A DNA stretch of 64,000 nucleotides from an uncultured Ectothiorhodospiraceae bacterium (GTDB lineage Bacteria > Pseudomonadota > Gammaproteobacteria > GCA-002705445 > GCA-002716945), in assembly GCA_964342155.1 (NCBI GenBank), contig CAYFEQ010000006.1, forward strand, positions 2,245 through 66,244, in the 5' to 3' direction. Within the stretch, counting starts at the first letter, position 1; every line of letters starts with the position of its first letter. Shown here piece by piece: positions 2,617 to 60,823 of this stretch. The notes below the pieces were generated by a model. That model had not been told where the DNA came from. It saw only the letters and a program-made list of their open reading frames with translations, and did no database searches. Both the position numbers and the translations under genes were made by a program.

Positions 2617-4392
2617 TTAATGTTGCTGAGGGAATTGTATTTTGTGTAAACTAGCATATAAGCCATTTTTATCAAGCAAATCTAGATGTTTGCCTCTTTC
2701 AACAATTTCACCTCTGTCTAAAACTAGTATTTCATCAGCATTTTTTATTGTAGATAATCTATGAGCTATTACTATTGTTGTCCGGTTTTTTAATAATACT
2801 GCGATAGCTTTTTGTATAAATTTTTCAGATTCAGAATCTAAAGAACTTGTCGCTTCATCCAATAATAATATCGGTGATTCTTTTAGTATAGCTCTAGCAA
2901 TTGCAATTCTTTGACGCTGACCTCCAGATAGTAGGACTCCATTATCACCAACAATTGTCTCATATCCATCTGGAAATTTATCAATAAATTCACTAGCATT
3001 TGCACTTATAGAAGCAGATTTTATTTCATCAAAACTTTTATTCTCCAGGGAACCATATGCTATATTATTTCTGATTGTGTCATTAAACAAAGTTAAATCT
3101 TGGCCAACATATGCTATTAAACCTCTTAGATCATTTAAACTATATTGATTTATATTTGATTTATCTATTAATATTTTACCAGAAACAATATCATAAAATC
3201 GTGGTATAAGATTCATTAAAGTTGATTTTCCACTTCCAGATTTCCCAACAATTGCACAAGTAGACCCCTCCTTAACTGTAAAATTAATATTCTTTAAAAC
3301 TAATTGATTATCTCTTTCATAAGAAAAATTTATATCTTTGAAATGTATTTCAGAAAAATTTTTTAAATCAGTATTTTTTTTGTTAATAGTTTTTTGAATA
3401 TTATCCTTTTCAATTGAAGAATCAATCAAGCCAAATATTGATTCACTGGCTGCAATACCTCTTTGTAACACTACATTAATTTCAGCTAGTCTTTTTAGCG
3501 GAGCAAACATAAGTATCATTGCGGTTATAAATGACATAAAAGTGCCAACACTTATTACTCCTAGAAATTCTTGTGAAGTTACTAAGTAAATAATCCCAGA
3601 TAAGAATAAAGCAACTACAAATTGTACTAAAGGAATACTAGTGCCTTGTATAAATGCTAATTTCATATGTTTAGATCTATTATTTTCATTGACTGATTCA
3701 AATGATTTCTTTTCACTTTTTTCGCCACTAAATATTTTTACAACCCTGTGCCCTTGTATTAATTCTTCAACAACATGAGTAATAAAACCCATAGATTTTT
3801 GTATATCTTTACTGACATCACGAAACTTTGTACTCATATATTTAACAAATACAGCTATGACAGGACCTATTATTAACAAACCTAAGGCTAAATGCCAACT
3901 ATGATAGAACATTAAACCGAGCAATCCAATTATGGTCAATCCGTCACGAATAATAACTGTTATTGCTTTGGTTGCAGCCTCAGCTACTTGTTCAGTGTCA
4001 TATGTAAGTTTTGATATTAATTCTCCTGATGATGCTGTGTCATAAGTTTTGGTAGGTGTATGAACAAGCTTATCAAACATTTCATTACGGATATTTTTTA
4101 CTACATTTCTTCCAACCCATGCCATCCCATATGTCGACAAAAAGCCAGCAACACTTCTAGCAAAAAATAAAGCTACTAAAAGCAATGGAAAATTTCTAAT
4201 AGTCTCAGGATCCTTTTCGATAAAGCTACCATCGAGTAATGGTTTAATTAAGGCTGCGAATGCAGTATCGGTAACAGCAAAAATTGACATTGCGAAGATT
4301 GCAAGAAAGAAAACTAGCTTATATTTTAGTGTATAGCCAATTAGTCTCTTATATACATGCAGCCCTTTTTTTGGTTTATCATATTCTTGCAT
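2617..4392 (-). CDS. msbA: Lipid A export ABC transporter (permease and ATPase fused)
   Basis: 591 aa with six TM helices then an ABC domain: Walker A GKSGSGKST, signature LSGGQRQR and Walker B ILLLDEATS. It sits upstream of lpxK. Confidence 0.9.
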   Translation of the reverse strand: MQEYDKPKKGLHVYKRLIGYTLKYKLVFFLAIFAMSIFAVTDTAFAALIKPLLDGSFIEKDPETIRNFPLLLVALFFARSVAGFLSTYGMAWVGRNVVKNIRNEMFDKLVHTPTKTYDTASSGELISKLTYDTEQVAEAATKAITVIIRDGLTIIGLLGLMFYHSWHLALGLLIIGPVIAVFVKYMSTKFRDVSKDIQKSMGFITHVVEELIQGHRVVKIFSGEKSEKKSFESVNENNRSKHMKLAFIQGTSIPLVQFVVALFLSGIIYLVTSQEFLGVISVGTFMSFITAMILMFAPLKRLAEINVVLQRGIAASESIFGLIDSSIEKDNIQKTINKKNTDLKNFSEIHFKDINFSYERDNQLVLKNINFTVKEGSTCAIVGKSGSGKSTLMNLIPRFYDIVSGKILIDKSNINQYSLNDLRGLIAYVGQDLTLFNDTIRNNIAYGSLENKSFDEIKSASISANASEFIDKFPDGYETIVGDNGVLLSGGQRQRIAIARAILKESPILLLDEATSSLDSESEKFIQKAIAVLLKNRTTIVIAHRLSTIKNADEILVLDRGEIVERGKHLDLLDKNGLYASLHKIQFPQQH

Positions 4393-6982: not shown

Positions 6983-8038
6983 ATGAAAAAAATTATACCT
7001 GATGAAAATTGTAATATGATCATATTGGTCTGGCCATTCATGTATGAACAAAAACCTTATTGGAATCAGATAATAAATACATTTAAGGAGATGATTTTAA
7101 TTTTATTAGAAAATAAGAACCATGTCTTAATTGTGACCAATAATCCAAAGGAAATTAACGATAAAGCTAATGAAATCTATAAGGAAAACAGATTGGTTGA
7201 TTTAAAAAACAATTTTCATACATTTACCTATGAATGTAATGATATTTGGATTAGGGATTATGGTCCAATTCAAGTACAAAATAATGTCAGGAATGAATAT
7301 AACTTCTATGGATATAATTTTAATGGTTATGGCAATAAGTATGTACATGAAAAGGATAAATCTTTCGCAGATTATTTTTCTAAATACTTTATTAAATACT
7401 CTAAAGATATAAATTATAATCTCTTTGAAAAGCCGTTTGACGATCTAATAATAGAGGGTGGTAATGTGCAATCAAACAAAAATGGACTAATTATTTTTAA
7501 CAGGAAATGCTTATTAAAAAATAATAAAGAAAATTGGAGTTCTATAAAACAGTATTTTGATGATGCAGTAAAAAAATATTATATCAATGACTATCTTTTT
7601 TTTGATTTAGATCCAATAACAGGAGATGATACCAATGGTCATCTTGACAACTTAATTCGTATATATAATGAAAATCTTGTTTTTTATATGAGTAGCAATG
7701 ATATAGAGCATCCAGATTTCTATCTACTTCAAGAATTGAAACAACAATTAGAAGCATTACAAAAAAAAACATCAAACATAAAACAGATTATACCTATAAA
7801 CCATACAACAGATGATATTGTCCTTAATCAACAGAGTATGATGTTGCCATTCTCTTATTTGAACTTCATAATAACTAATAATGTAATAATTTTTCCTGCT
7901 AATAAAAATACCAAAATAGAAAGCTTGGATAAAATATTGCCCTTCTTTAATAATAAAAGAAATTATTTAATAAATGTAGAAGGCTTATTGAACGAACTTG
8001 GTGGATTACATTGCTGTAGTTTAAATATTTGTTATTAA
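6983..8038 (+). CDS. aguA: Agmatine deiminase (porphyromonas-type peptidyl-arginine deiminase fold)
   Basis: Motifs W-x-RD-x-GP (IWIRDYGPI), GHLD and a C-terminal catalytic-Cys region GGLHCCSLN; 351 aa. It lies immediately upstream of aguB. Confidence 0.75.
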   Translation: MKKIIPDENCNMIILVWPFMYEQKPYWNQIINTFKEMILILLENKNHVLIVTNNPKEINDKANEIYKENRLVDLKNNFHTFTYECNDIWIRDYGPIQVQNNVRNEYNFYGYNFNGYGNKYVHEKDKSFADYFSKYFIKYSKDINYNLFEKPFDDLIIEGGNVQSNKNGLIIFNRKCLLKNNKENWSSIKQYFDDAVKKYYINDYLFFDLDPITGDDTNGHLDNLIRIYNENLVFYMSSNDIEHPDFYLLQELKQQLEALQKKTSNIKQIIPINHTTDDIVLNQQSMMLPFSYLNFIITNNVIIFPANKNTKIESLDKILPFFNNKRNYLINVEGLLNELGGLHCCSLNICY

Positions 8039-8048
8039 TGAAATAATT

Positions 8049-8882
8049 ATGAAAAAGAAAATTAATATAGTAATAATACAGAAGAAATTTACTTCTACTA
8101 TAGAAAATAATATATCTGATTTAGATTTACTCATAACAAATAAGAAAATTGCTAAAAACAGTATTCTTGTCCTGCATGAATTAACATTAACTAAATATTT
8201 TTGCATATCAAAAGATAATAATAATTTTAAATATTCAATAAGTAATGATTCTGTCATCTTTAAACAATTAAAGGATATTTGTATTAAAAATAAAGTTTTC
8301 CTTTTAATTAGTTATTTCGAAAGGTTTAAAGGAAAATATTATAATTCATCATCATTGCTTTCTCCTAAAGGGACTGTGATAGGCAAATATCGTAAGAAAA
8401 ATCTACCAGATGAGCAATGTTATCATGAAAAATTTTATTTCAACTCATCTTCTCAGCCCTTTAAAATTTTTGATATTGGGTTATGTAAAATTGGGATTAT
8501 GTTGTGTTGGGATCAATGGTTTTCAAATTCATATTCAAAATTGAATAGTCTAGGTGCAGATATTATCTTTTGCCCTACATCAATAGGATATACCTATATA
8601 AATAATAAAAAAATATCCTTATCTACTGAAAAAGAAATGTGGTTGAAGATTATCCAAGCCAATAGTCTCATGAATAATATCCCTGTCGTAGTAGCGAATA
8701 GAATTGGAAAAGAAACTTCAGGCAATAAAACCATTTCATTCTGGGGATCTAGTTTCATTACTAATTCTGAAGGACAAATAATTGCAAAGGCAGGCAAAAG
8801 TACTTCTTTAGTGAGCGGATCTATAAGTCTTTTAGATAGAAAAAAATCTATAAAAAAATGGGGGTTTTCCTCTGTTGACTAA
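8049..8882 (+). CDS. aguB: N-carbamoylputrescine amidase (nitrilase / C-N hydrolase family)
   Basis: CWDQWF catalytic-Cys motif and a nitrilase-superfamily E-K-C architecture; 277 aa. Confidence 0.8.
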   Translation: MKKKINIVIIQKKFTSTIENNISDLDLLITNKKIAKNSILVLHELTLTKYFCISKDNNNFKYSISNDSVIFKQLKDICIKNKVFLLISYFERFKGKYYNSSSLLSPKGTVIGKYRKKNLPDEQCYHEKFYFNSSSQPFKIFDIGLCKIGIMLCWDQWFSNSYSKLNSLGADIIFCPTSIGYTYINNKKISLSTEKEMWLKIIQANSLMNNIPVVVANRIGKETSGNKTISFWGSSFITNSEGQIIAKAGKSTSLVSGSISLLDRKKSIKKWGFSSVD

Positions 8883-9055
8883 GCTTTGACCTCAAAATTG
8901 GCTAATTTTAGAGGGTATGAGTTAAATCTATGTATTCATGACATTAAAAAGTATTCAATTAAGGTTTTATATACTGTAGAATTGTTATATTGAATAAGGG
9001 GATTTGGTTCAATGACTAGGAAATTAAAGGACAAAATATATATGGAGATTAAATT

Positions 9056-9199
9056 ATGAAACTGTACGCCTTATTGTTAATAGGTTTTTTGATGACGTTT
9101 ACTTCATTTTCAGTTCATAGTTCTATAAATAATAATTTTCCTAATCTAATTTTTGCTGAAGAGGAAAAAGAAGCAGAAGAAGAGCCAGATTGCGAATAA
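9056..9199 (+). CDS. Small predicted secreted peptide (about 47 aa): signal-peptide-like N-terminus and an acidic Glu-rich tail ending ..PDCE
   Basis: My reading gives MKLYALLLIGFLMTFTSFSVHSSINNNFPNLIFAEEEKEAEE..PDCE, preceded by GGAGA 6 nt upstream. It is below the 60-aa ORF-track cutoff. My reading of one base near 9181-9189 is uncertain, but the frame agrees with the track coordinates. Confidence 0.3.
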   Translation: MKLYALLLIGFLMTFTSFSVHSSINNNFPNLIFAEEEKEAEEEPDCE

Positions 9200-9213
9200 T
9201 ATTTGGAGGAGAT

Positions 9214-9885
9214 ATGAAATTAAAAATTGTATTAAGTATGTTTTTGGTTTCTCTATTTACATTTTCAACTGCTTATGCAGATAAGCCTGTTGGAATATCA
9301 AAAGCTGACGGTCCATATTCGCTAGAAATTGGAACTTCTATATATGCTGGTAAGCATAAAATAATGAGAAATCAAAACAATAAAAATACTGTAAACCCTG
9401 CATTTGCTAAAACCTCAAGACCATGTCCACCGTTCTGTATTCAACCAATGCAGCTAAGACCTGGAATTGAAACTCTTGGTGAGCAAGAAATTATTCACTA
9501 CTTAGTAATGATGGGTAAAGGTCAAAAAATGCCTGATGGTTCTAAAATAATGGTAATTGATTCTAGAACACCTGATTGGGTTGCTAAAGGAACAATTCCT
9601 GGTGCAGTTAATGTACCTTGGACTCACCTTAGTGAAAAGAAAGGAGCAGATCCAATTTCAATAGCTGAGATTATGACTGATAAATTTGGAGCGACTGAGC
9701 AAAATGGTCTTTTCTATTTTGATAATGCAAAGACTCTAGTTATGTTCTGTAATGGAATGTGGTGCGGTCAATCACCAAATAATATCAAAAGCTTATTGAA
9801 GTATGGCTATCCAGCACATAAGATTAAATGGTATCGTGGTGGTATGCAGAATTGGGAAGCATTAGGTTTCAATACTGTAAAATAA
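9214..9885 (+). CDS. Periplasmic rhodanese-domain sulfurtransferase-like protein
   Basis: Signal peptide MKLKIVLSMFLVSLFTFSTAYA with GGAGGAG 6 nt upstream of the ATG at 9214; the track start at 9190 is a TTG. It has a rhodanese active-site loop FCNGMWCGQSP and an additional CPPFC pair. GC is about 40-45%, versus 20-30% in the flanks. Confidence 0.7.
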   Translation: MKLKIVLSMFLVSLFTFSTAYADKPVGISKADGPYSLEIGTSIYAGKHKIMRNQNNKNTVNPAFAKTSRPCPPFCIQPMQLRPGIETLGEQEIIHYLVMMGKGQKMPDGSKIMVIDSRTPDWVAKGTIPGAVNVPWTHLSEKKGADPISIAEIMTDKFGATEQNGLFYFDNAKTLVMFCNGMWCGQSPNNIKSLLKYGYPAHKIKWYRGGMQNWEALGFNTVK

Positions 9886-9909
9886 AATAGCTATATATTT
9901 ATTTAAAAA

Positions 9910-9936
9910 GCAGTGCCTCGGTACTGCTTTTTTTTA
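9910..9936 (+). terminator. Rho-independent terminator after the rhodanese gene
   Basis: GCAGTGCC..GGTACTGC hairpin followed by a T8 run; read directly from the sequence. Confidence 0.6.
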
Positions 9937-9938
9937 TT

Positions 9939-12900
9939 ATGAGTAGTTTATTAGCTAAAAAACAACGGGTATCACAATATGGTGGCCTCTACGGGTCATC
10001 ATCCATCTATTATATAAAAAAATTTTTAGCTGAATTCAAAAATATAATAGTGCTTGTAGACAATAATACTGAAATTAACAATTTGTCAAACGAGTTTAAT
10101 GTTTTTAAAAATGATCAAACCAAAATAAGTAAGTTTTTAGACTTGGAGTCATTACCGTATGAAGATGTTATAACAGATGTTGATATAAATGGGGAAAGAT
10201 TAAAAACATTTAATAATTTATTCAAAGCTAATAAAAATATAGTTTTTACAACATATTCAGCAATCATAAAAAGGTTAGTTCCAACAGATGTTTTAGAAAA
10301 TTATTTTATAGAAATTGATAAATCATCTAAATACAACAACATAAGAAAAATACTTAATGAATTTAATTATCATAGATGTGATCATGTTACTACTAAAGGT
10401 GAGTATTCAATACGTGGGCCAATAATTGATATTTTTTCAGCTACTTGTCAAAATCCTATTAGAATAGTTTTTGATGGAGAAAATATTGAAAATATAAAAG
10501 AATTTGATTCAATAAGTCAAAAGTCTTATAAAGAAATTAATGATTTTCTTTTATCAACAACTTCTGAAATTCTTCTTGATGATGATACAGTTAAATTGTA
10601 TAAAAAAAATTGTCATAAATATTTCGAGAAAGATTATATAGAAGATATTGAGTATGACAAAATAACAAATAAGATTAATCATCCAACAATTTTTACTCTT
10701 TTACCACTTTTTTATAACTATACGTCTTCATTTTTTGACCTTTTTGATGGTAATCAAACTGCTATAATAACGACAAAGGATATTAGCGTTCAATTAAAAA
10801 AGATTTCTATAATCTACAAAAAATACTATAAAAAATATTTTGATGAAAAATATCTTCTTGATCCAAAAAAACTGATTCTAGAACGTGTCGAATATGAAAA
10901 ATTATTGTCAAAATTTTATACTATTGAGTTATCAACCTATAAATTAGATAATAAAATTAATTCATTTAATCTGAATACAAAAAAACTTCCTTCATTAATC
11001 GTCAATAATACTTTTAACGACCCCTATAAATATTTTAAAACATTTATCACAAATACTATCTATAAATCACTTATTTGTATAAGAAGAAAAAGTTTATACA
11101 ATGAAATTAAAAATATTCTCAATAGTTTACAATTGAAATTTATTGAAATTGACTATTTTGATGACTTTATTAAATCTAAATCAAGTATATCATTAACAAA
11201 ACTTCCCGTTGACACTGGTTTTATAGATAATAATGATAAAATTGCAATAATTTCAGATAAAGATATTTTTGGGTCAAGATCATTAAGTAAGCCTGAATCT
11301 CAAACAAAAAAAAATATTATAGATGAATATATCAATGATATTGCATCATTAGAAATAGATTCTCCTATCGTTCATGATAATTATGGTGTTGGTAGGTATA
11401 AGGGTTTAATGAATATGGATGTAGAGGGAATACAAACTGAATTAGTAAAAATTGAATATGCAGATAGTGATATTTTATACATACCTGTAACATCTATTAA
11501 TCTCATCAAAAAATATGCTGGTTACACAGGAATAAATATACCTTTGCACCGACTTGGAACTAATCAATGGATTAAAATTAAAAATAGAGCTAAGAAAAAA
11601 ATTAATGATATAGCGGTTGAGCTACTAGAAATACAATCAAGGCGTTATGCAAACAAGGGTTTTAAATTTAATATTGATTATAATGAATACAAACAGTTTT
11701 GCGAGAAATTCCCATTTGTTGAAACTGAAGATCAATTAAAAGCAATAAATGATGTTATTGAATCAATGTCATTAGAAAACCCAATGGATAGGCTTATATG
11801 TGGTGATGTAGGTTTTGGGAAAACTGAAATAATAATGCGAGCAGGATATATTGCATCTCTGAATGATAAGAAGACAGTTATCTTAGCTCCTACTACAATT
11901 CTCGTTGAACAACATTATAAATCTTTTTTAAAAAGATTTGAAGATACTCCGATAATTATTAAAAAATACTCTAGATTACAAACTCCTGCACAAAGAAAAA
12001 AAATTTTTGATGCATTTAATTCTAATAAGATAGATATTTTGATAGGTACACATGCAATATTATCAAATTCTAGTAAATATCAAAATATTGGGCTTCTCGT
12101 GATTGATGAAGAACATAAGTTTGGAGTTATAGCAAAAGAAAAATTAAAAAAATTAAAAGGAAATGTAGATGTAATTACACTTACAGCTACACCAATACCA
12201 AGAACATTGAATTCTGCATTAGCAAAAATTAAAGATTTGAGTGTAATTGAAACACCTCCAAAAAATCGAAAATCTATCTCTACTCTAATTACAGAATGGG
12301 ATATAGATGTAATTTCTGATGCAATACAAAGAGAAATACAAAGAGGAGGTCAAATATATTTTGTAAATGACCAAATAAAAACAATGGATTTGCAAATAGA
12401 AAGGCTTCATGAGATTGATAAAAATTTACGAATTGGCATTATACATGGTCAATTATCAAATAAAGAAATAGAAACTCAAATGAATTCATTTCTAAATAAT
12501 AAAATTGATCTATTAATGTGCACAAGTATTATTGAGAGCGGATTAGATATACAAAATGTAAATACAATTATAATAAATAATGCGAATAAATTTGGATTAT
12601 CGCAATTACATCAGATAAGAGGGAGAGTTGGAAGAACTAATAGACAAGCTTACGCATATTTGATTGTGGATAGTAAAAAATTAACAACTAAAGATGCTGC
12701 CAAACGGCTTGAAGCATTTGACTCTGTAGATAGTCTTGGTGGTGGACTAGAATTAGCTACACATGATTTAGAAATACGTGGTGCTGGAGAATTACTTGGT
12801 GAAGAACAGAGCGGTCAAATATATGAAGTTGGATATGCAATGTTTACTGATATGTTGAAGAAAAGTATAGATTTTCTCAAAACAGGCCATTACATGGATG

Positions 12901-51933: not shown

Positions 51934-51964
51934 ATTTTTGAAATATTAAAATATATTCAGCCTT

Positions 51965-52038
51965 CGGAGACGAAGGGACTCGAACCCTCGACCTCCTGCG
52001 TGACAGGCAGGCGTTCTAACCAACTGAACTACGCCTCC
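51965..52038 (-). tRNA. tRNA-Asp (anticodon GTC)
   Basis: Reverse complement reads GGAGGCGTAGTTCAGTTGGTTAGAACGCCTGCCTGTCACGCAGGAGGTCGAGGGTTCGAGTCCCTTCGTCTCCG, with a cloverleaf and GTC anticodon. CCA is not encoded. Confidence 0.85.
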
Positions 52039-52083
52039 AAAACTAAAAGTATAGTAACATTTTTTAAAATTTACATAAATAAA

Positions 52084-52112
52084 AAGAAGCAGTGGAGACT
52101 GCTTCTTTTAAA
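52084..52112 (-). terminator. Hairpin with flanking T-runs between tRNA-Val and tRNA-Asp (possible bidirectional terminator or processing signal)
   Basis: AAGAAGCAGT-GGAG-ACTGCTTCTT, a perfect 10-bp stem, with T-runs on both strands. Confidence 0.4.
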
Positions 52113-52120
52113 TTTTTCTC

Positions 52121-52194
52121 TGGGTGCTGTAAGAGTCGAACTTACGACCTCCGCCTTGTAAGGGCGGCGCTCTAACCAGCTGAGCTAAGCACCC
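52121..52194 (-). tRNA. tRNA-Val (anticodon TAC)
   Basis: Reverse complement reads GGGTGCTTAGCTCAGCTGGTTAGAGCGCCGCCCTTACAAGGCGGAGGTCGTAAGTTCGACTCTTACAGCACCCA. Confidence 0.85.
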
Positions 52195-58668: not shown

Positions 58669-58696
58669 TGTTATTGTCCTAAAATTAATTTGAGAT

Positions 58697-58779
<83 letters not shown>

Positions 58780-60537: not shown

Positions 60538-60573
60538 ATTTTTGAAATTGTTATATAGGTAAGAATTTTATGG

Positions 60574-60646
60574 GTGGACGATGGGATTTGAACCCACGAC
60601 AACTGGTACCACAAACCAGGGCTCTACCGCTGAGCTACGCCCACCA
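60574..60646 (-). tRNA. tRNA-His (anticodon GTG) with the extra 5' G(-1)
   Basis: Reverse complement reads GGTGGGCGTAGCTCAGCGGTAGAGCCCTGGTTTGTGGTACCAGTTGTCGTGGGTTCAAATCCCATCGTCCACCC, close to E. coli hisR. Confidence 0.85.
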
Positions 60647-60669
60647 TAATAAAATTTTAACATATATTA

Positions 60670-60744
60670 CGCGCCTGGAAGGATTCGAACCTCCGACCTC
60701 ATCGTTCGTAGCGATGCACTCTAATCCAACTGAGCTACAGGCGC
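60670..60744 (-). tRNA. tRNA-Arg (anticodon ACG)
   Basis: Reverse complement reads GCGCCTGTAGCTCAGTTGGATTAGAGTGCATCGCTACGAACGATGAGGTCGGAGGTTCGAATCCTTCCAGGCGC. Confidence 0.85.
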
Positions 60745-60749
60745 AAATT

Positions 60750-60823
60750 TCGGGGTGATAGGATTCGAACCTACGACCTACTGGTCCCAAACCAGCCGCG
60801 CTACCAAGCTGCGCTACACCCCG
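60750..60823 (-). tRNA. tRNA-Pro (anticodon TGG)
   Basis: Reverse complement reads CGGGGTGTAGCGCAGCTTGGTAGCGCGGCTGGTTTGGGACCAGTAGGTCGTAGGTTCGAATCCTATCACCCCG. Confidence 0.85.

Follow-up and report, generated by a model that had tools for sequence, protein, structure and literature searches.

To our knowledge, the movement of reactive sulfur and the upkeep of single thiols in the oxidising periplasm are understood only in the Sox system and in a handful of Dsb clients. SoxY folds into a protein of ~110-140 aa that bears a Gly-rich arm, pairs with SoxZ and is encoded in sox clusters. In DsrC/TusE, a penultimate Cys on a flexible C-terminal arm takes sulfur from a partner enzyme. According to PMC11237559 and its reference 75, SoxY is exported for the sole task of presenting one Cys near its C-terminus, on a flexible swinging arm, and carries sulfur on that Cys. 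The enzymes of the pathway load and unload sulfur species on that Cys. Rhodaneses act via a Cys persulfide; their active-site loop ends in Arg, Thr or Ser in all 13 solved rhodaneses, and mutants of three enzymes showed that this residue is needed for thiosulfate cleavage (PMC8533005). Single-domain periplasmic or secreted enzymes of the E. coli PspE, Wolinella Sud and GlpE types carry a single Cys, and their loop ends in a basic or hydroxyl residue.

We analysed a 64,000-nt stretch of DNA (hereafter the window) and found a compact unit at 8977-9939 on its plus strand, on which all features given below lie. A promoter-like -10 element comes first, followed by a gene for a 47-aa peptide, a gene for a 223-aa rhodanese and a terminator. 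The two products look like an undescribed periplasmic thiol/sulfur-handling pair, in which known sulfur-carrier logic recurs in changed form. The -10-like hexamer TAGAAT (8977-8982), with TG before it, lies ~75 nt 5′ of the peptide ATG; it is a consensus match only, and was absent from the list of a default promoter scan of the locus. TAGAAT, TATAAT or a near variant is located at a similar upstream distance in the window as well as in almost every one of 11 close relatives (L001-L011). A Shine-Dalgarno sequence GGAG (9044-9047) was read directly 8 nt ahead of the peptide ATG, and GGAG/AGGA-type purine-rich sites precede the peptide start in most of the close relatives compared. The rhodanese has its own Shine-Dalgarno sequence, GGAGG (9205-9209, also read directly), 5 nt past the peptide stop codon and 4 nt ahead of the ATG. 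The gap between the two genes is 14 nt in the window clade, so translational coupling is possible there, and 14-334 nt in other clades. An intrinsic-terminator-like hairpin with a T-run (9905-9939; hairpin 9905-9932) ends the unit directly 5′ of the mfd ATG at 9939. It has a 12-pair stem with 4 G-C pairs, a loop of 4 and a T-rich tail, and one such site was found versus 0.4 expected in shuffled sequences. The positions given in a preliminary description for both ORFs, the Cys motifs, the ribosome-binding sites and the terminator were all reproduced. The genes it had placed beside the pair, aguA, aguB and mfd, were identified there as agmatine deiminase, CN-hydrolase and mfd; together with lolE, also a neighbour, these are housekeeping genes. 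The description had further listed a tiny upstream ORF with its ATG at 9012. This ORF does exist (9012-9059, 15 codons) and overlaps the peptide start in an ATGA arrangement, but it was rejected as a feature: it is missing from the 11 close relatives and is thus a chance ORF in AT-rich DNA.

The small ORF (9056-9199), taken from the ORF list and supported by conservation, is translated as MKLYALLLIGFLMTFTSFSVHSSINNNFPNLIFAEEEKEAEEEPDCE and is predicted to encode the precursor of an exported acidic peptide ending in E-P-D-C-E. Residues 1-22, MKLYALLLIGFLMTFTSFSVHS (9056-9121), form a predicted Sec-type signal peptide with an 11-aa Kyte-Doolittle maximum of 2.57 at residues 3-13. The n-h-c architecture of this region recurs in all 70 extracted peptide homologues. 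A signal peptide is also predicted for the rhodanese, MKLKIVLSMFLVSLFTFSTAYA / DKPV (9214-9279), with A-Y-A ahead of a conserved (D/G)KPVGI. At each of the two N-termini, an n-region with Lys is followed by a hydrophobic core (11-aa Kyte-Doolittle mean 2.6-2.75) and a cleavage-type c-region (VHS/AYA). The architectures and both cleavage sites were assigned by inspection, by which no twin-arginine motif or lipobox was seen in the two N-termini. Given these predicted Sec-type signals, both products should reach the periplasm. The mature peptide would be ~25 aa, SINNNFPNLIFAEEEKEAEEEPDCE, strongly acidic, its only thiol being that of the penultimate residue. It contains a hydrophobic patch, NLIFA (residues 30-34, 9143-9157), which is a second, weaker conserved element ahead of the acidic run. 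The homologues repeat it as (C)-x-hydrophobic-hydrophobic-[A/S/N]-[D/E], 12-30 residues from the C-terminus, and it may serve as a docking strand. The acidic run and terminal motif, EEEKEAEEEPDCE (9158-9196), hold the conserved E43, P44 and C46 (TGC at 9191-9193). Our alignments A3 and A5 both show P44 and C46 as invariant; E43 is likewise invariant in A5, with a conservation of ≥90% in A3. In the AF2 model of the peptide, only residues 3-15 are helical, and residues 21-47 are coil. Over the last 25 residues of the homologues, the net charge has a median of -8. The length of the acidic linker varies among homologues, and only the signal peptide, the short hydrophobic patch and the terminal E-P-x-C are kept; this pattern fits a tethered arm.

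The comparison with the sulfur carriers gave both likenesses and differences. Like SoxY, the peptide, whose export is predicted, would present one Cys near the C-terminus on a flexible arm and would have a dedicated partner, so the carrier logic is alike. The carrier here, however, would be acidic, unstructured and 25-50 aa long, end in an E-P-[DE]-C-[DE] tail and have a rhodanese as its partner. It shares the single C-terminal Cys on a flexible arm with SoxY-type proteins but has no detectable homology to them; there is no SoxZ, and no sox or other sulfur-oxidation gene adjoining the pair was found in the window. The resemblance to SoxY is one of design only and not of membership. DsrC/TusE, in contrast to the peptide, are cytoplasmic, folded and ~100 aa long; their arm carries another Cys ten residues before the penultimate one, a signal peptide and an acidic run are both absent, and their sequences are not similar to that of the peptide. 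Precursors of RiPPs and of cofactors (such as PqqA) are, like the peptide, encoded by very small ORFs directly 5′ of an enzyme gene, and only a few residues close to the C-terminus are invariant in them. However, they are cytoplasmic substrates of radical-SAM, YcaO or lanthionine-type enzymes, whereas for the peptide a Sec signal peptide of its own is predicted, an export signal and not a leader, and no modifying-enzyme gene is conserved nearby. The rhodanese gene is the only one conserved with it.

The preliminary description had noticed a short ORF of ~47 aa upstream of the rhodanese, with its own ribosome-binding site and a single Cys near the C-terminus, and had suggested that the two genes form a periplasmic module for the transfer of sulfur (or selenium/tellurite), with the peptide as thiol carrier or partner. 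The ORF and the pairing hold, and the pairing withstands the refutation that the description had set for itself, namely absence of the small ORF beside rhodanese homologues; the carrier chemistry would be a further step. A co-directional small ORF just 5′ of the rhodanese was present in 72/78 assessable species-level loci, at GC contents of 25-67%. In 69/76 loci a regular expression for the C-terminal motif had a same-strand match no more than 400 nt upstream, and 3 more loci were recognised by eye, giving 72. Each of these ORFs encodes a predicted signal peptide, then a variable stretch, a run of acidic residues and an invariant E-P-[DE]-C-[DE]-stop. Among 1.15 million six-frame residues of those loci the motif occurred elsewhere once, in the same gene displaced by an insertion. 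Wherever the pair is present, the peptide gene is first and on the same strand as the rhodanese, and look-ups from the peptide side found a rhodanese gene immediately downstream in 5/5 cases. A profile search recovered 331 peptide clusters at 50% identity, and 133 of 136 new representative matches end in E-P-[DE]-C-[DE] or E-P-[DE]-C; the conserved Cys is invariant and lies at position -2, rarely -1. The gene is often missed by gene callers, unannotated in most records or overwritten by over-extended rhodanese calls. This, and a length of 47 aa, would be expected of a chance ORF in AT-rich DNA with the rhodanese as the sole gene, but such a reading is hardly credible here. The ORF has a ribosome-binding site and hundreds of related clusters, and its motif is invariant at the protein level across the whole GC range while being encoded by all synonymous codons: CCA/CCT/CCG/CCC were used 17/21/18/11 times for the invariant Pro and TGT/TGC 32/35 times for the Cys, and all three stop codons occur. 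Moreover, dN/dS was 0.06-0.54, below 1 in 22/22 pairs for which it could be estimated. The small ORF is a genuine gene, under purifying selection at the protein level. No Pfam or NCBIfam family matched the window peptide or five diverse homologues, and a literature search for the motif strings, for a periplasmic rhodanese with a small Cys protein and for CXXCW found nothing relevant.

The second gene (9214-9885) encodes a four-Cys rhodanese-like protein of 223 aa with a predicted periplasmic location. It belongs to Pfam Rhodanese (PF00581) with 50.8 bits versus a cut-off of 22.2. Both Cys motifs noted in the preliminary description, a two-Cys loop FCNGMWCGQ and a CPPFC pair, are present in this ORF. 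The pair C71 and C75 (9424-9438), within the invariant motif FAKTSRPCPPFCIQP, lies in an 80-residue N-terminal extension that has no Pfam domain. C71, P73, F74 and C75 are invariant among 69 rhodanese sequences, and residues 62-76 of the AF2 model have pLDDT <50. The active-site loop C179-N-G-M-W-C184 (CX4C, 9748-9765), within FCNGMWCGQ, was assigned from invariance and from an alignment to yeast RDL1/YOR285W (3d1p). C179 falls on the loop Cys of RDL1 (FYCASGKRG), with C184 five residues on, and C179, N180, G181, W183, C184, G185 and Q186 are all invariant in the same 69 sequences. In the AF2 model C179 is the end of strand 174-179, as for the catalytic Cys that opens a six-residue loop after the central beta-strand of rhodanese domains. 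The other end of the loop differs from that of a functional thiosulfate:cyanide sulfurtransferase, since it is the invariant Cys184 and the loop contains no basic residue. A classical thiosulfate donor is therefore unlikely. Judged by sequence, the rhodanese is atypical: it has the invariant CPPFC and CNGMWC motifs, with a second loop Cys in place of Arg/Thr/Ser. The protein is like PspE, Sud and GlpE-type enzymes in being a single-domain rhodanese, here with a periplasmic location predicted from the signal peptide, and differs from them in the CPPFC extension, the CX4C loop with its end Cys and the co-conserved peptide gene. TIGR03865 (PQQ_CXXCW) and BH2092 (PDB 3o3w/3nhv) have two Cys in or at the active-site loop, as this protein does. 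However, TIGR03865 scored only 27.8 bits versus a cut-off of 128, over residues 170-221 only, and no PQQ genes were located near the pair in 76 loci. BH2092, which together with marginal rhodanese matches was all that PDB sequence searches returned, is a structural-genomics target of uncharacterised function that lacks both the N-terminal extension and a peptide. Further NCBIfam matches, to TsoB, LYCAU and SelU-like (23 bits) families, were likewise weak and far below their cut-offs.

The preliminary description had regarded the rhodanese as compositionally foreign and horizontally acquired, citing 40-45% GC and the use of CCG, GGT, GCG and CGT codons. The ORF measures 34.7% GC; its 60-nt windows have 37% as their median and reach 47% at most. 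The 34.7% is the highest of the 53 ORFs in the window (mean 29.3%, sd 2.8), and together with the promoter-like site and the terminator of the unit it is what favours a recently acquired island. Nevertheless, we consider acquisition very improbable. When GC3 and codon usage were computed, both proved to be within the norm of the window: GC3 is 21.4% versus 18.8 ± 2.6, the excess GC falling on the first two codon positions, and for synonymous codons the score ranks 26/53 (z = -0.14). CCG accounts for 1/15 Pro codons, GCG for 1/14 Ala and CGT for 1/5 Arg; GGT accounts for 12/20 Gly codons and is also the common Gly codon of the window. The total GC is high because the conserved residues are rich in Gly, Ala, Pro, Arg and Trp, and the amino-acid composition (z = 2.9) accounts for the excess. 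Across 72 genomes the GC3 of the rhodanese follows that of its flanking genes (r = 0.96, slope 1.17). The locus position is kept in 12-16 related loci, and the order lolE ... peptide-rhodanese-mfd is common to clades whose rhodaneses are only ~61% identical to the query; the homologues of marine Gammaproteobacteria are 60-65% identical. No integrase, transposase, tRNA target or repeat was found beside the pair. The pair is native to this genome and vertically inherited, and a conserved Gly/Ala/Pro-rich protein in a 29% GC genome looks 'GC-rich' although it is not foreign.

We propose, with a probability of roughly 40%, that this vertically inherited two-gene operon encodes a persulfide relay, in which the peptide is the dedicated thiol partner of the rhodanese and presents its Cys on a flexible acidic arm. 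The hydrophobic patch and the acidic run of the peptide would dock on the basic enzyme, and the E-P-D-C-E tail would reach the active site as a swinging arm. Cys46 could then take sulfane sulfur from persulfidated Cys179, or give one back. Cys184 would serve as the resolving thiol, and recycling of the enzyme might fall to the CPPFC pair, to a periplasmic thioredoxin-fold protein or to both. The net role of the peptide would be that of a ribosomally made, exported mini-carrier of periplasmic sulfur. The consistent pairing of the two genes argues for this proposal, as do their fixed order and strand, the protein-level selection on the peptide, its tethered-arm pattern without modelled secondary structure past the signal-peptide region, and the alignment of C179 with the catalytic Cys of yeast RDL1. 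No other gene was conserved with the pair: the best was present in 21/76 loci, and beyond that there was only clade-specific housekeeping synteny, indicating that the peptide-rhodanese partnership is specific. The charges also fit. The mature enzyme is basic (pI ~9.3; median of homologues 8.9), with 8 Lys/Arg versus 3 Asp/Glu among its invariant charged residues, and the peptide is as acidic as described above. On the other hand, peptide and enzyme show no co-variation in net charge (rho = -0.01), the model of the CPPFC region is of low confidence, and a lone thiol in an oxidising periplasm would need protection. The loop end disfavours a classical thiosulfate donor, and the window neighbours (aguA, aguB, mfd, lolE) are housekeeping and not sulfur-oxidation genes. 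Furthermore, alphaproteobacterial homologues with 38-40% identity keep all four Cys and have no such peptide, and four gammaproteobacterial loci also lack it, so the enzyme can work without the peptide.

The most serious competitor of the persulfide relay is a thiol-disulfide pair that handles no sulfane sulfur, and we regard it as possible, if on the unlikely side. The rhodanese would then be a CX4C plus CX3C redox enzyme that forms a mixed disulfide between C179 and the peptide Cys, with the peptide as a cap that protects or regulates the catalytic Cys in the oxidising periplasm, or as a small redox substrate or buffer. The four invariant Cys do form two close pairs, and a Cys that replaces Arg/Thr/Ser at the loop end suits a resolving thiol better than thiosulfate cleavage. 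PQQ_CXXCW, TsoB and LYCAU, the families matched weakly and below cut-off, are relatives with two-residue redox loops. Thioredoxin-fold CxxC genes lie directly beside the pair in 25/76 loci of three clades and belong to three unrelated families (Thioredoxin_2, TlpA-like Redoxin and AhpC/TSA). These neighbours would also be expected under the relay, because thioredoxins are ordinary acceptors of rhodanese persulfides as well, and they thus do not separate the two models. The fold and the position of the catalytic Cys, however, are of the sulfurtransferase type, and a cap has no obvious need for an invariant E-P-x-C-x tail and a long acidic linker.

It is improbable that the small ORF acts in cis, as a leader whose translation tunes that of the rhodanese, either as an export monitor or through a ribosome-destabilising nascent chain. 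SecM and VemP are secretion-monitor leaders with a signal peptide and a conserved C-terminal motif, a layout that the small ORF shares; it is also always upstream and co-directional, and in the window clade just 5 nt separate its stop codon from the rhodanese Shine-Dalgarno sequence. Its acidic run with prolines belongs to a class, negatively charged runs with intermittent prolines, that reportedly destabilises translating ribosomes; such destabilisation is reported to peak at N-termini and to be suppressed by a nascent chain that fills the tunnel (Chadani et al., bioRxiv 10.1101/2021.02.02.429294). Here, however, the D/E-Pro stretch is not N-terminal but begins at residue 35, after at least 34 residues, and the acidic linker is free to vary in length. 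The gap of variable length contains no conserved hairpin that could couple the genes, the invariant residue is a Cys beside a Cys-based enzyme, and the gene downstream encodes neither a secretion factor nor an Mg2+ factor. An attenuator or terminator between the genes would imply an excess of peptide, but the median folding z of the gaps was ~0, a hairpin with a T-run occurred in 6/53 gaps only, and an Rfam search of the locus found no element. Somewhat less probable again is the handling of a metal or metalloid (selenium or tellurite, as raised in the preliminary description, or arsenic or copper), bound or shuttled by the peptide and reduced or transferred by the rhodanese-fold protein. Carboxylates and a thiol are a plausible ligand set, and SelU-like, TsoB and LYCAU families are selenium-linked, but the scores of the selenium families were 10-50 times below the cut-offs. 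No transporter, reductase or resistance gene is conserved near the pair, which lies among housekeeping genes. Sulfurtransferases have six-residue loops and the reductase/phosphatase branch has the longer CX5R; the loop found by the RDL1 alignment has six residues, which also argues against this reading.

Returning to the persulfide relay, the E-P-x-C-tail peptides could, as a tentative generalisation, form a new class of ribosomally made, Sec-exported thiol carriers that are charged and discharged with sulfane sulfur or disulfide by a CX4C rhodanese. If this is true, a minimal peptide-based carrier joins the known sulfur-relay designs, and the E-P-x-C peptides amount to a gene-encoded 'periplasmic low-molecular-weight thiol' borne on an acidic arm. 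It would also give a function to the highly conserved 'rhodanese-like domain-containing protein' of marine Gammaproteobacteria, and would imply a Sox-independent traffic or detoxification of reactive sulfur outside the cytoplasm in many of them. The pair is small, widespread and easy to express. Relatives of the enzyme were present in at least 588 species-level genomes, and a plasmid collection yielded only distant rhodanese homologues (at most 40% identity) without the peptide. Among the loci compared are those of the scaly-foot snail endosymbiont (L081) and of a culturable carrier, Marinobacterium sp. xm-d-530 (L073). The hosts of the pair are many marine gammaproteobacteria, including sulfur-oxidising symbionts, SUP05 and an AT-rich pelagic clade.

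The two genes lie in an AT-rich window (29.2% GC), downstream of an agmatine-deiminase-type gene (6983-8038) and of the aguB-like CN-hydrolase gene that it precedes (8049-8882). The intergenic stretch that follows (8883-9055) carries the -10-like element cTGTAGAAT (hexamer TAGAAT, 8977-8982), and such a TAGAAT/TATAAT element, 55-75 nt 5' of the peptide ATG, was common to most of the close relatives L001-L011, which suggests a dedicated promoter with a 5' UTR of ~65 nt. No Rfam element was found in this UTR. The peptide ORF (47 codons, MKLYALLLIGFLMTFTSFSVHSSINNNFPNLIFAEEEKEAEEEPDCE, 9056-9199) is preceded by a Shine-Dalgarno-type GGAG 8 nt before its ATG, and a 14-base gap containing GGAGG separates it from the rhodanese ORF (223 codons, 9214-9885). 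The product of the latter has a predicted signal-peptide-like N-terminus (MKLKIVLSMFLVSLFTFSTAYA/DKPV), a CPPFC motif and the loop FCNGMWCGQ, and it scores 50.8 bits in the Rhodanese model of Pfam (cut-off 22.2). A terminator-like hairpin with a T-run (9905-9932) closes the unit just 5' of mfd, which starts at 9939. A uORF of 15 codons (MTRKLKDKIYMEIKL, 9012-9059) overlaps the peptide ATG; it had a counterpart in none of 11 close relatives and was treated as chance. Mechanical and public gene calls over-extend the rhodanese N-terminally (window 9190-9213; proteins P0015, 245 aa; P0007, 231 aa; P0014, 233 aa): some begin at a TTG at 9190, others read across the peptide ORF in a different frame, and the peptide gene is often left uncalled. 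The window also holds six minus-strand tRNA genes (Asp, Val, Leu, His, Arg and Pro; 51964-52194, 58696-58779 and 60572-60823), which are ordinary and unrelated to the pair.

The preliminary description had proposed, as speculation, that the peptide is a partner of the rhodanese, and in co-occurrence this idea withstood a strong comparative test. At least 588 rhodanese relatives were detected in a one-genome-per-species scan, and the best 80 loci were kept. A regular expression for [DE]P[DE]C[DE]-stop matched in 69 of 76 loci on the strand of the rhodanese, no more than 400 nt upstream of it; elsewhere in 1.15 million six-frame residues the expression matched once, in the same gene displaced 646 nt by an insertion. 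The peptide was also present in three of the four loci skipped by the rhodanese-finding script. Two loci were too near a contig end to assess, and the peptide was apparently absent upstream of the rhodanese in four (L034, L050, L069 and L074). All homologues share one layout: a predicted signal peptide, a variable stretch (often with one Cys, then 2-3 hydrophobic residues), a linker that is acidic or rich in Lys and differs in length, and the tail. Pro44 and Cys46 were invariant, and Glu43 was invariant in peptide alignment A5, while in alignment A3 its conservation was 90% or more. The tail codons varied (Pro CCA/CCT/CCG/CCC, 17/21/18/11; Cys TGT/TGC, 32/35), and all three stop codons occurred. 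The peptide dN/dS was 0.06-0.54 in the 22 pairs yielding an estimate, and the pooled pN/pS was 0.39 for the peptide versus 0.11 for the rhodanese. By these comparisons, selection on the peptide gene acts at the protein level, and the small ORF is a real gene co-conserved with the rhodanese.

A word-based database search with the window's peptide matched only 6 entries. A profile search of 1.84 billion proteins returned 331 clusters at 50% identity; 133 of the 136 new top matches ended in the motif and none was fused to a larger protein. Look-ups from five different peptides each placed a Rhodanese gene immediately downstream. Every source that names the peptides calls them 'hypothetical protein', no Pfam or NCBIfam model matched them, and a literature search with the peptide and rhodanese motif strings found no relevant paper; the family appears undescribed. 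In SUP05/Thioglobus- and Arenicellales-type genomes, a five-Cys variant (...AWCEANQNACVTWCE(S/T)xPDxEICQEPECD) occurs (L043, L046, L048, L051-L053, L055 and L083-L086; gene at ~3520-3925, L083 6001-6192), whose extra Cys could form a small disulfide-knotted head; a divergently transcribed TlpA-like WATWCGPC redoxin gene adjoins it. In one genome (L039, ~3354-4000), a repeat-rich insertion of ~600 nt, with reading frames that repeat VFRKEPWRRCGYVQGWT-like units, lies between the two genes; the pair tolerates being split.

The preliminary description was largely right as a whole, except in reading the rhodanese gene as compositionally foreign and horizontally acquired. The GC content, put there at 40-45%, was measured as 34.7%, the highest of the 53 window ORFs (mean 29.3%, sd 2.8), and the codons supposed to be foreign were rare (CCG 1/15 Pro, GCG 1/14 Ala, CGT 1/5 Arg). 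GC1 (42.9%) and GC2 (39.7%) were high, GC3 was 21.4% versus 18.8 ± 2.6 for the window, and Gly/Ala/Pro/Arg/Trp made up 26.5% of the protein versus 16.5% (z = 2.9). By mean log frequency of synonymous codons, the rhodanese ranked 26th of 53 ORFs (z = -0.14; small ORF, z = -0.35). Across 72 genomes of 25-66% GC, rhodanese GC3 tracked that of the flanking genes (r = 0.96, slope 1.17), while its total GC was compressed (slope 0.72), as expected of a constrained protein. The order lolE/aguA/aguB/peptide/rhodanese/mfd was found again in 12-16 related loci, and in a 45% GC clade with a rhodanese ~61% identical to the query the pair still lies between lolDE and mfd. Given its typical GC3 and codon usage, host-tracking GC3 and kept gene order, the unit is native and old.

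The rhodanese has at least 7982 homologues in databases, with marine Gammaproteobacteria at 60-65% identity. All four Cys were invariant and fall in two extended motifs that are themselves invariant, FAKTSRPCPPFCIQP and CNGMWCGQSPNNIK. In the AF2 model (mean pLDDT 73.9) the rhodanese domain was confident, and residues 62-76 around CPPFC fell below 50. Alignment to yeast RDL1 placed C179 on the RDL1 loop Cys, with C184 five residues further. The rhodanese active site is a six-residue loop opening with Cys; among 13 solved enzymes surveyed, its last residue was Arg in 8, Thr in 3 and Ser in 2, and mutational work on RDL2, DUF442 and human TST ties this residue to thiosulfate S-S cleavage (PMC8533005). 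Here the loop ends in Cys184 and has no basic residue, which argues against classical thiosulfate:cyanide chemistry; from its position, Cys184 would better suit a resolving thiol. NCBIfam gave only far-sub-threshold matches to relatives with a two-residue loop (among them PQQ_CXXCW, 27.8 bits versus 128; TsoB; LYCAU), and the CX4C loop is common to BH2092, which is functionally uncharacterised. The rhodanese belongs to a known fold, of which it represents a new subfamily. Alphaproteobacterial megaplasmid homologues of 38-40% identity (Salipiger, L093 5971-6561; Hoeflea, L094 5878-6480) retain both Cys motifs (KTSRxCPxFCIQP and FCNGxWCGQSP); no E-P-x-C peptide was found upstream of them, and they have instead an internal insert, LGCEPDFDGWDC, that adds two Cys.

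Both products carry export signals predicted by inspection. The mature peptide was unstructured in an AF2 model, with a strongly acidic tail (median net charge -8) and one invariant thiol next to its C-terminus; the enzyme is basic (median pI 8.9, 8 invariant Lys/Arg) and has a Cys-based catalytic loop. We infer that the peptide is a dedicated thiol partner of the enzyme. The version we tentatively prefer, at a probability of about 0.4, is a persulfide relay, in which C179 would carry sulfane sulfur and the peptide tail Cys would take or give it there, the hydrophobic patch and acidic run tethering the peptide during transfer; the enzyme would be reset by C184 and the CPPFC pair, or by a thioredoxin-fold protein. 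This model mirrors the swinging-arm principle of SoxY (PMC11237559), although the parts are non-homologous, and the pair would best be filed under known sulfur-carrier/relay logic, as a variation on it.

The main rival, that the same partners perform pure disulfide exchange or that the peptide forms a protective mixed-disulfide cap, is in our view rather unlikely. That the small ORF is a cis-regulatory leader would accord with its D/E-Pro-rich end (Chadani et al., bioRxiv 10.1101/2021.02.02.429294), but is made improbable by the invariant Cys, the position of the motif after at least 34 residues, the peptide-rhodanese spacing of 14-334 nt, and the lack of conserved RNA structure in Rfam and intergenic folding searches. 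Metal or metalloid handling, for which gene context offered no support, seems very improbable.

The neighbours of the pair are housekeeping genes (aguB, lysA, dapF, mfd and lolE), and no larger gene accompanies it across clades, the commonest neighbour occurring at 21 of 76 loci. Thiol redox is one recurrent theme: in three clades, amounting to 25 of the 76 loci, members of three different thioredoxin-fold families directly adjoin the pair. Directly downstream lies a Thioredoxin_2 protein with the motif D/E-C-x-Y-C, upstream and divergent a TlpA-like redoxin with WATWCGPC, and downstream and convergent an AhpC/TSA protein with WCPYC. In one gammaproteobacterial clade (L012-L015, L018, L020, L027, L031, L032, L038 and L072), a Thioredoxin_2 protein (~165 aa, predicted signal peptide, [DEY]C-x-[YF]-C) is encoded co-directionally 20-170 nt 3' of the rhodanese; the two genes probably share an operon, and the protein is a candidate redox partner. 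The pair is also present in the complete chromosome of the well-studied, sulfur-oxidising scaly-foot snail endosymbiont (AP012978.1; L081, 1-1301 and 6001-6958), where aguA/aguB-type genes ~5 kb upstream echo the gene order of the window.
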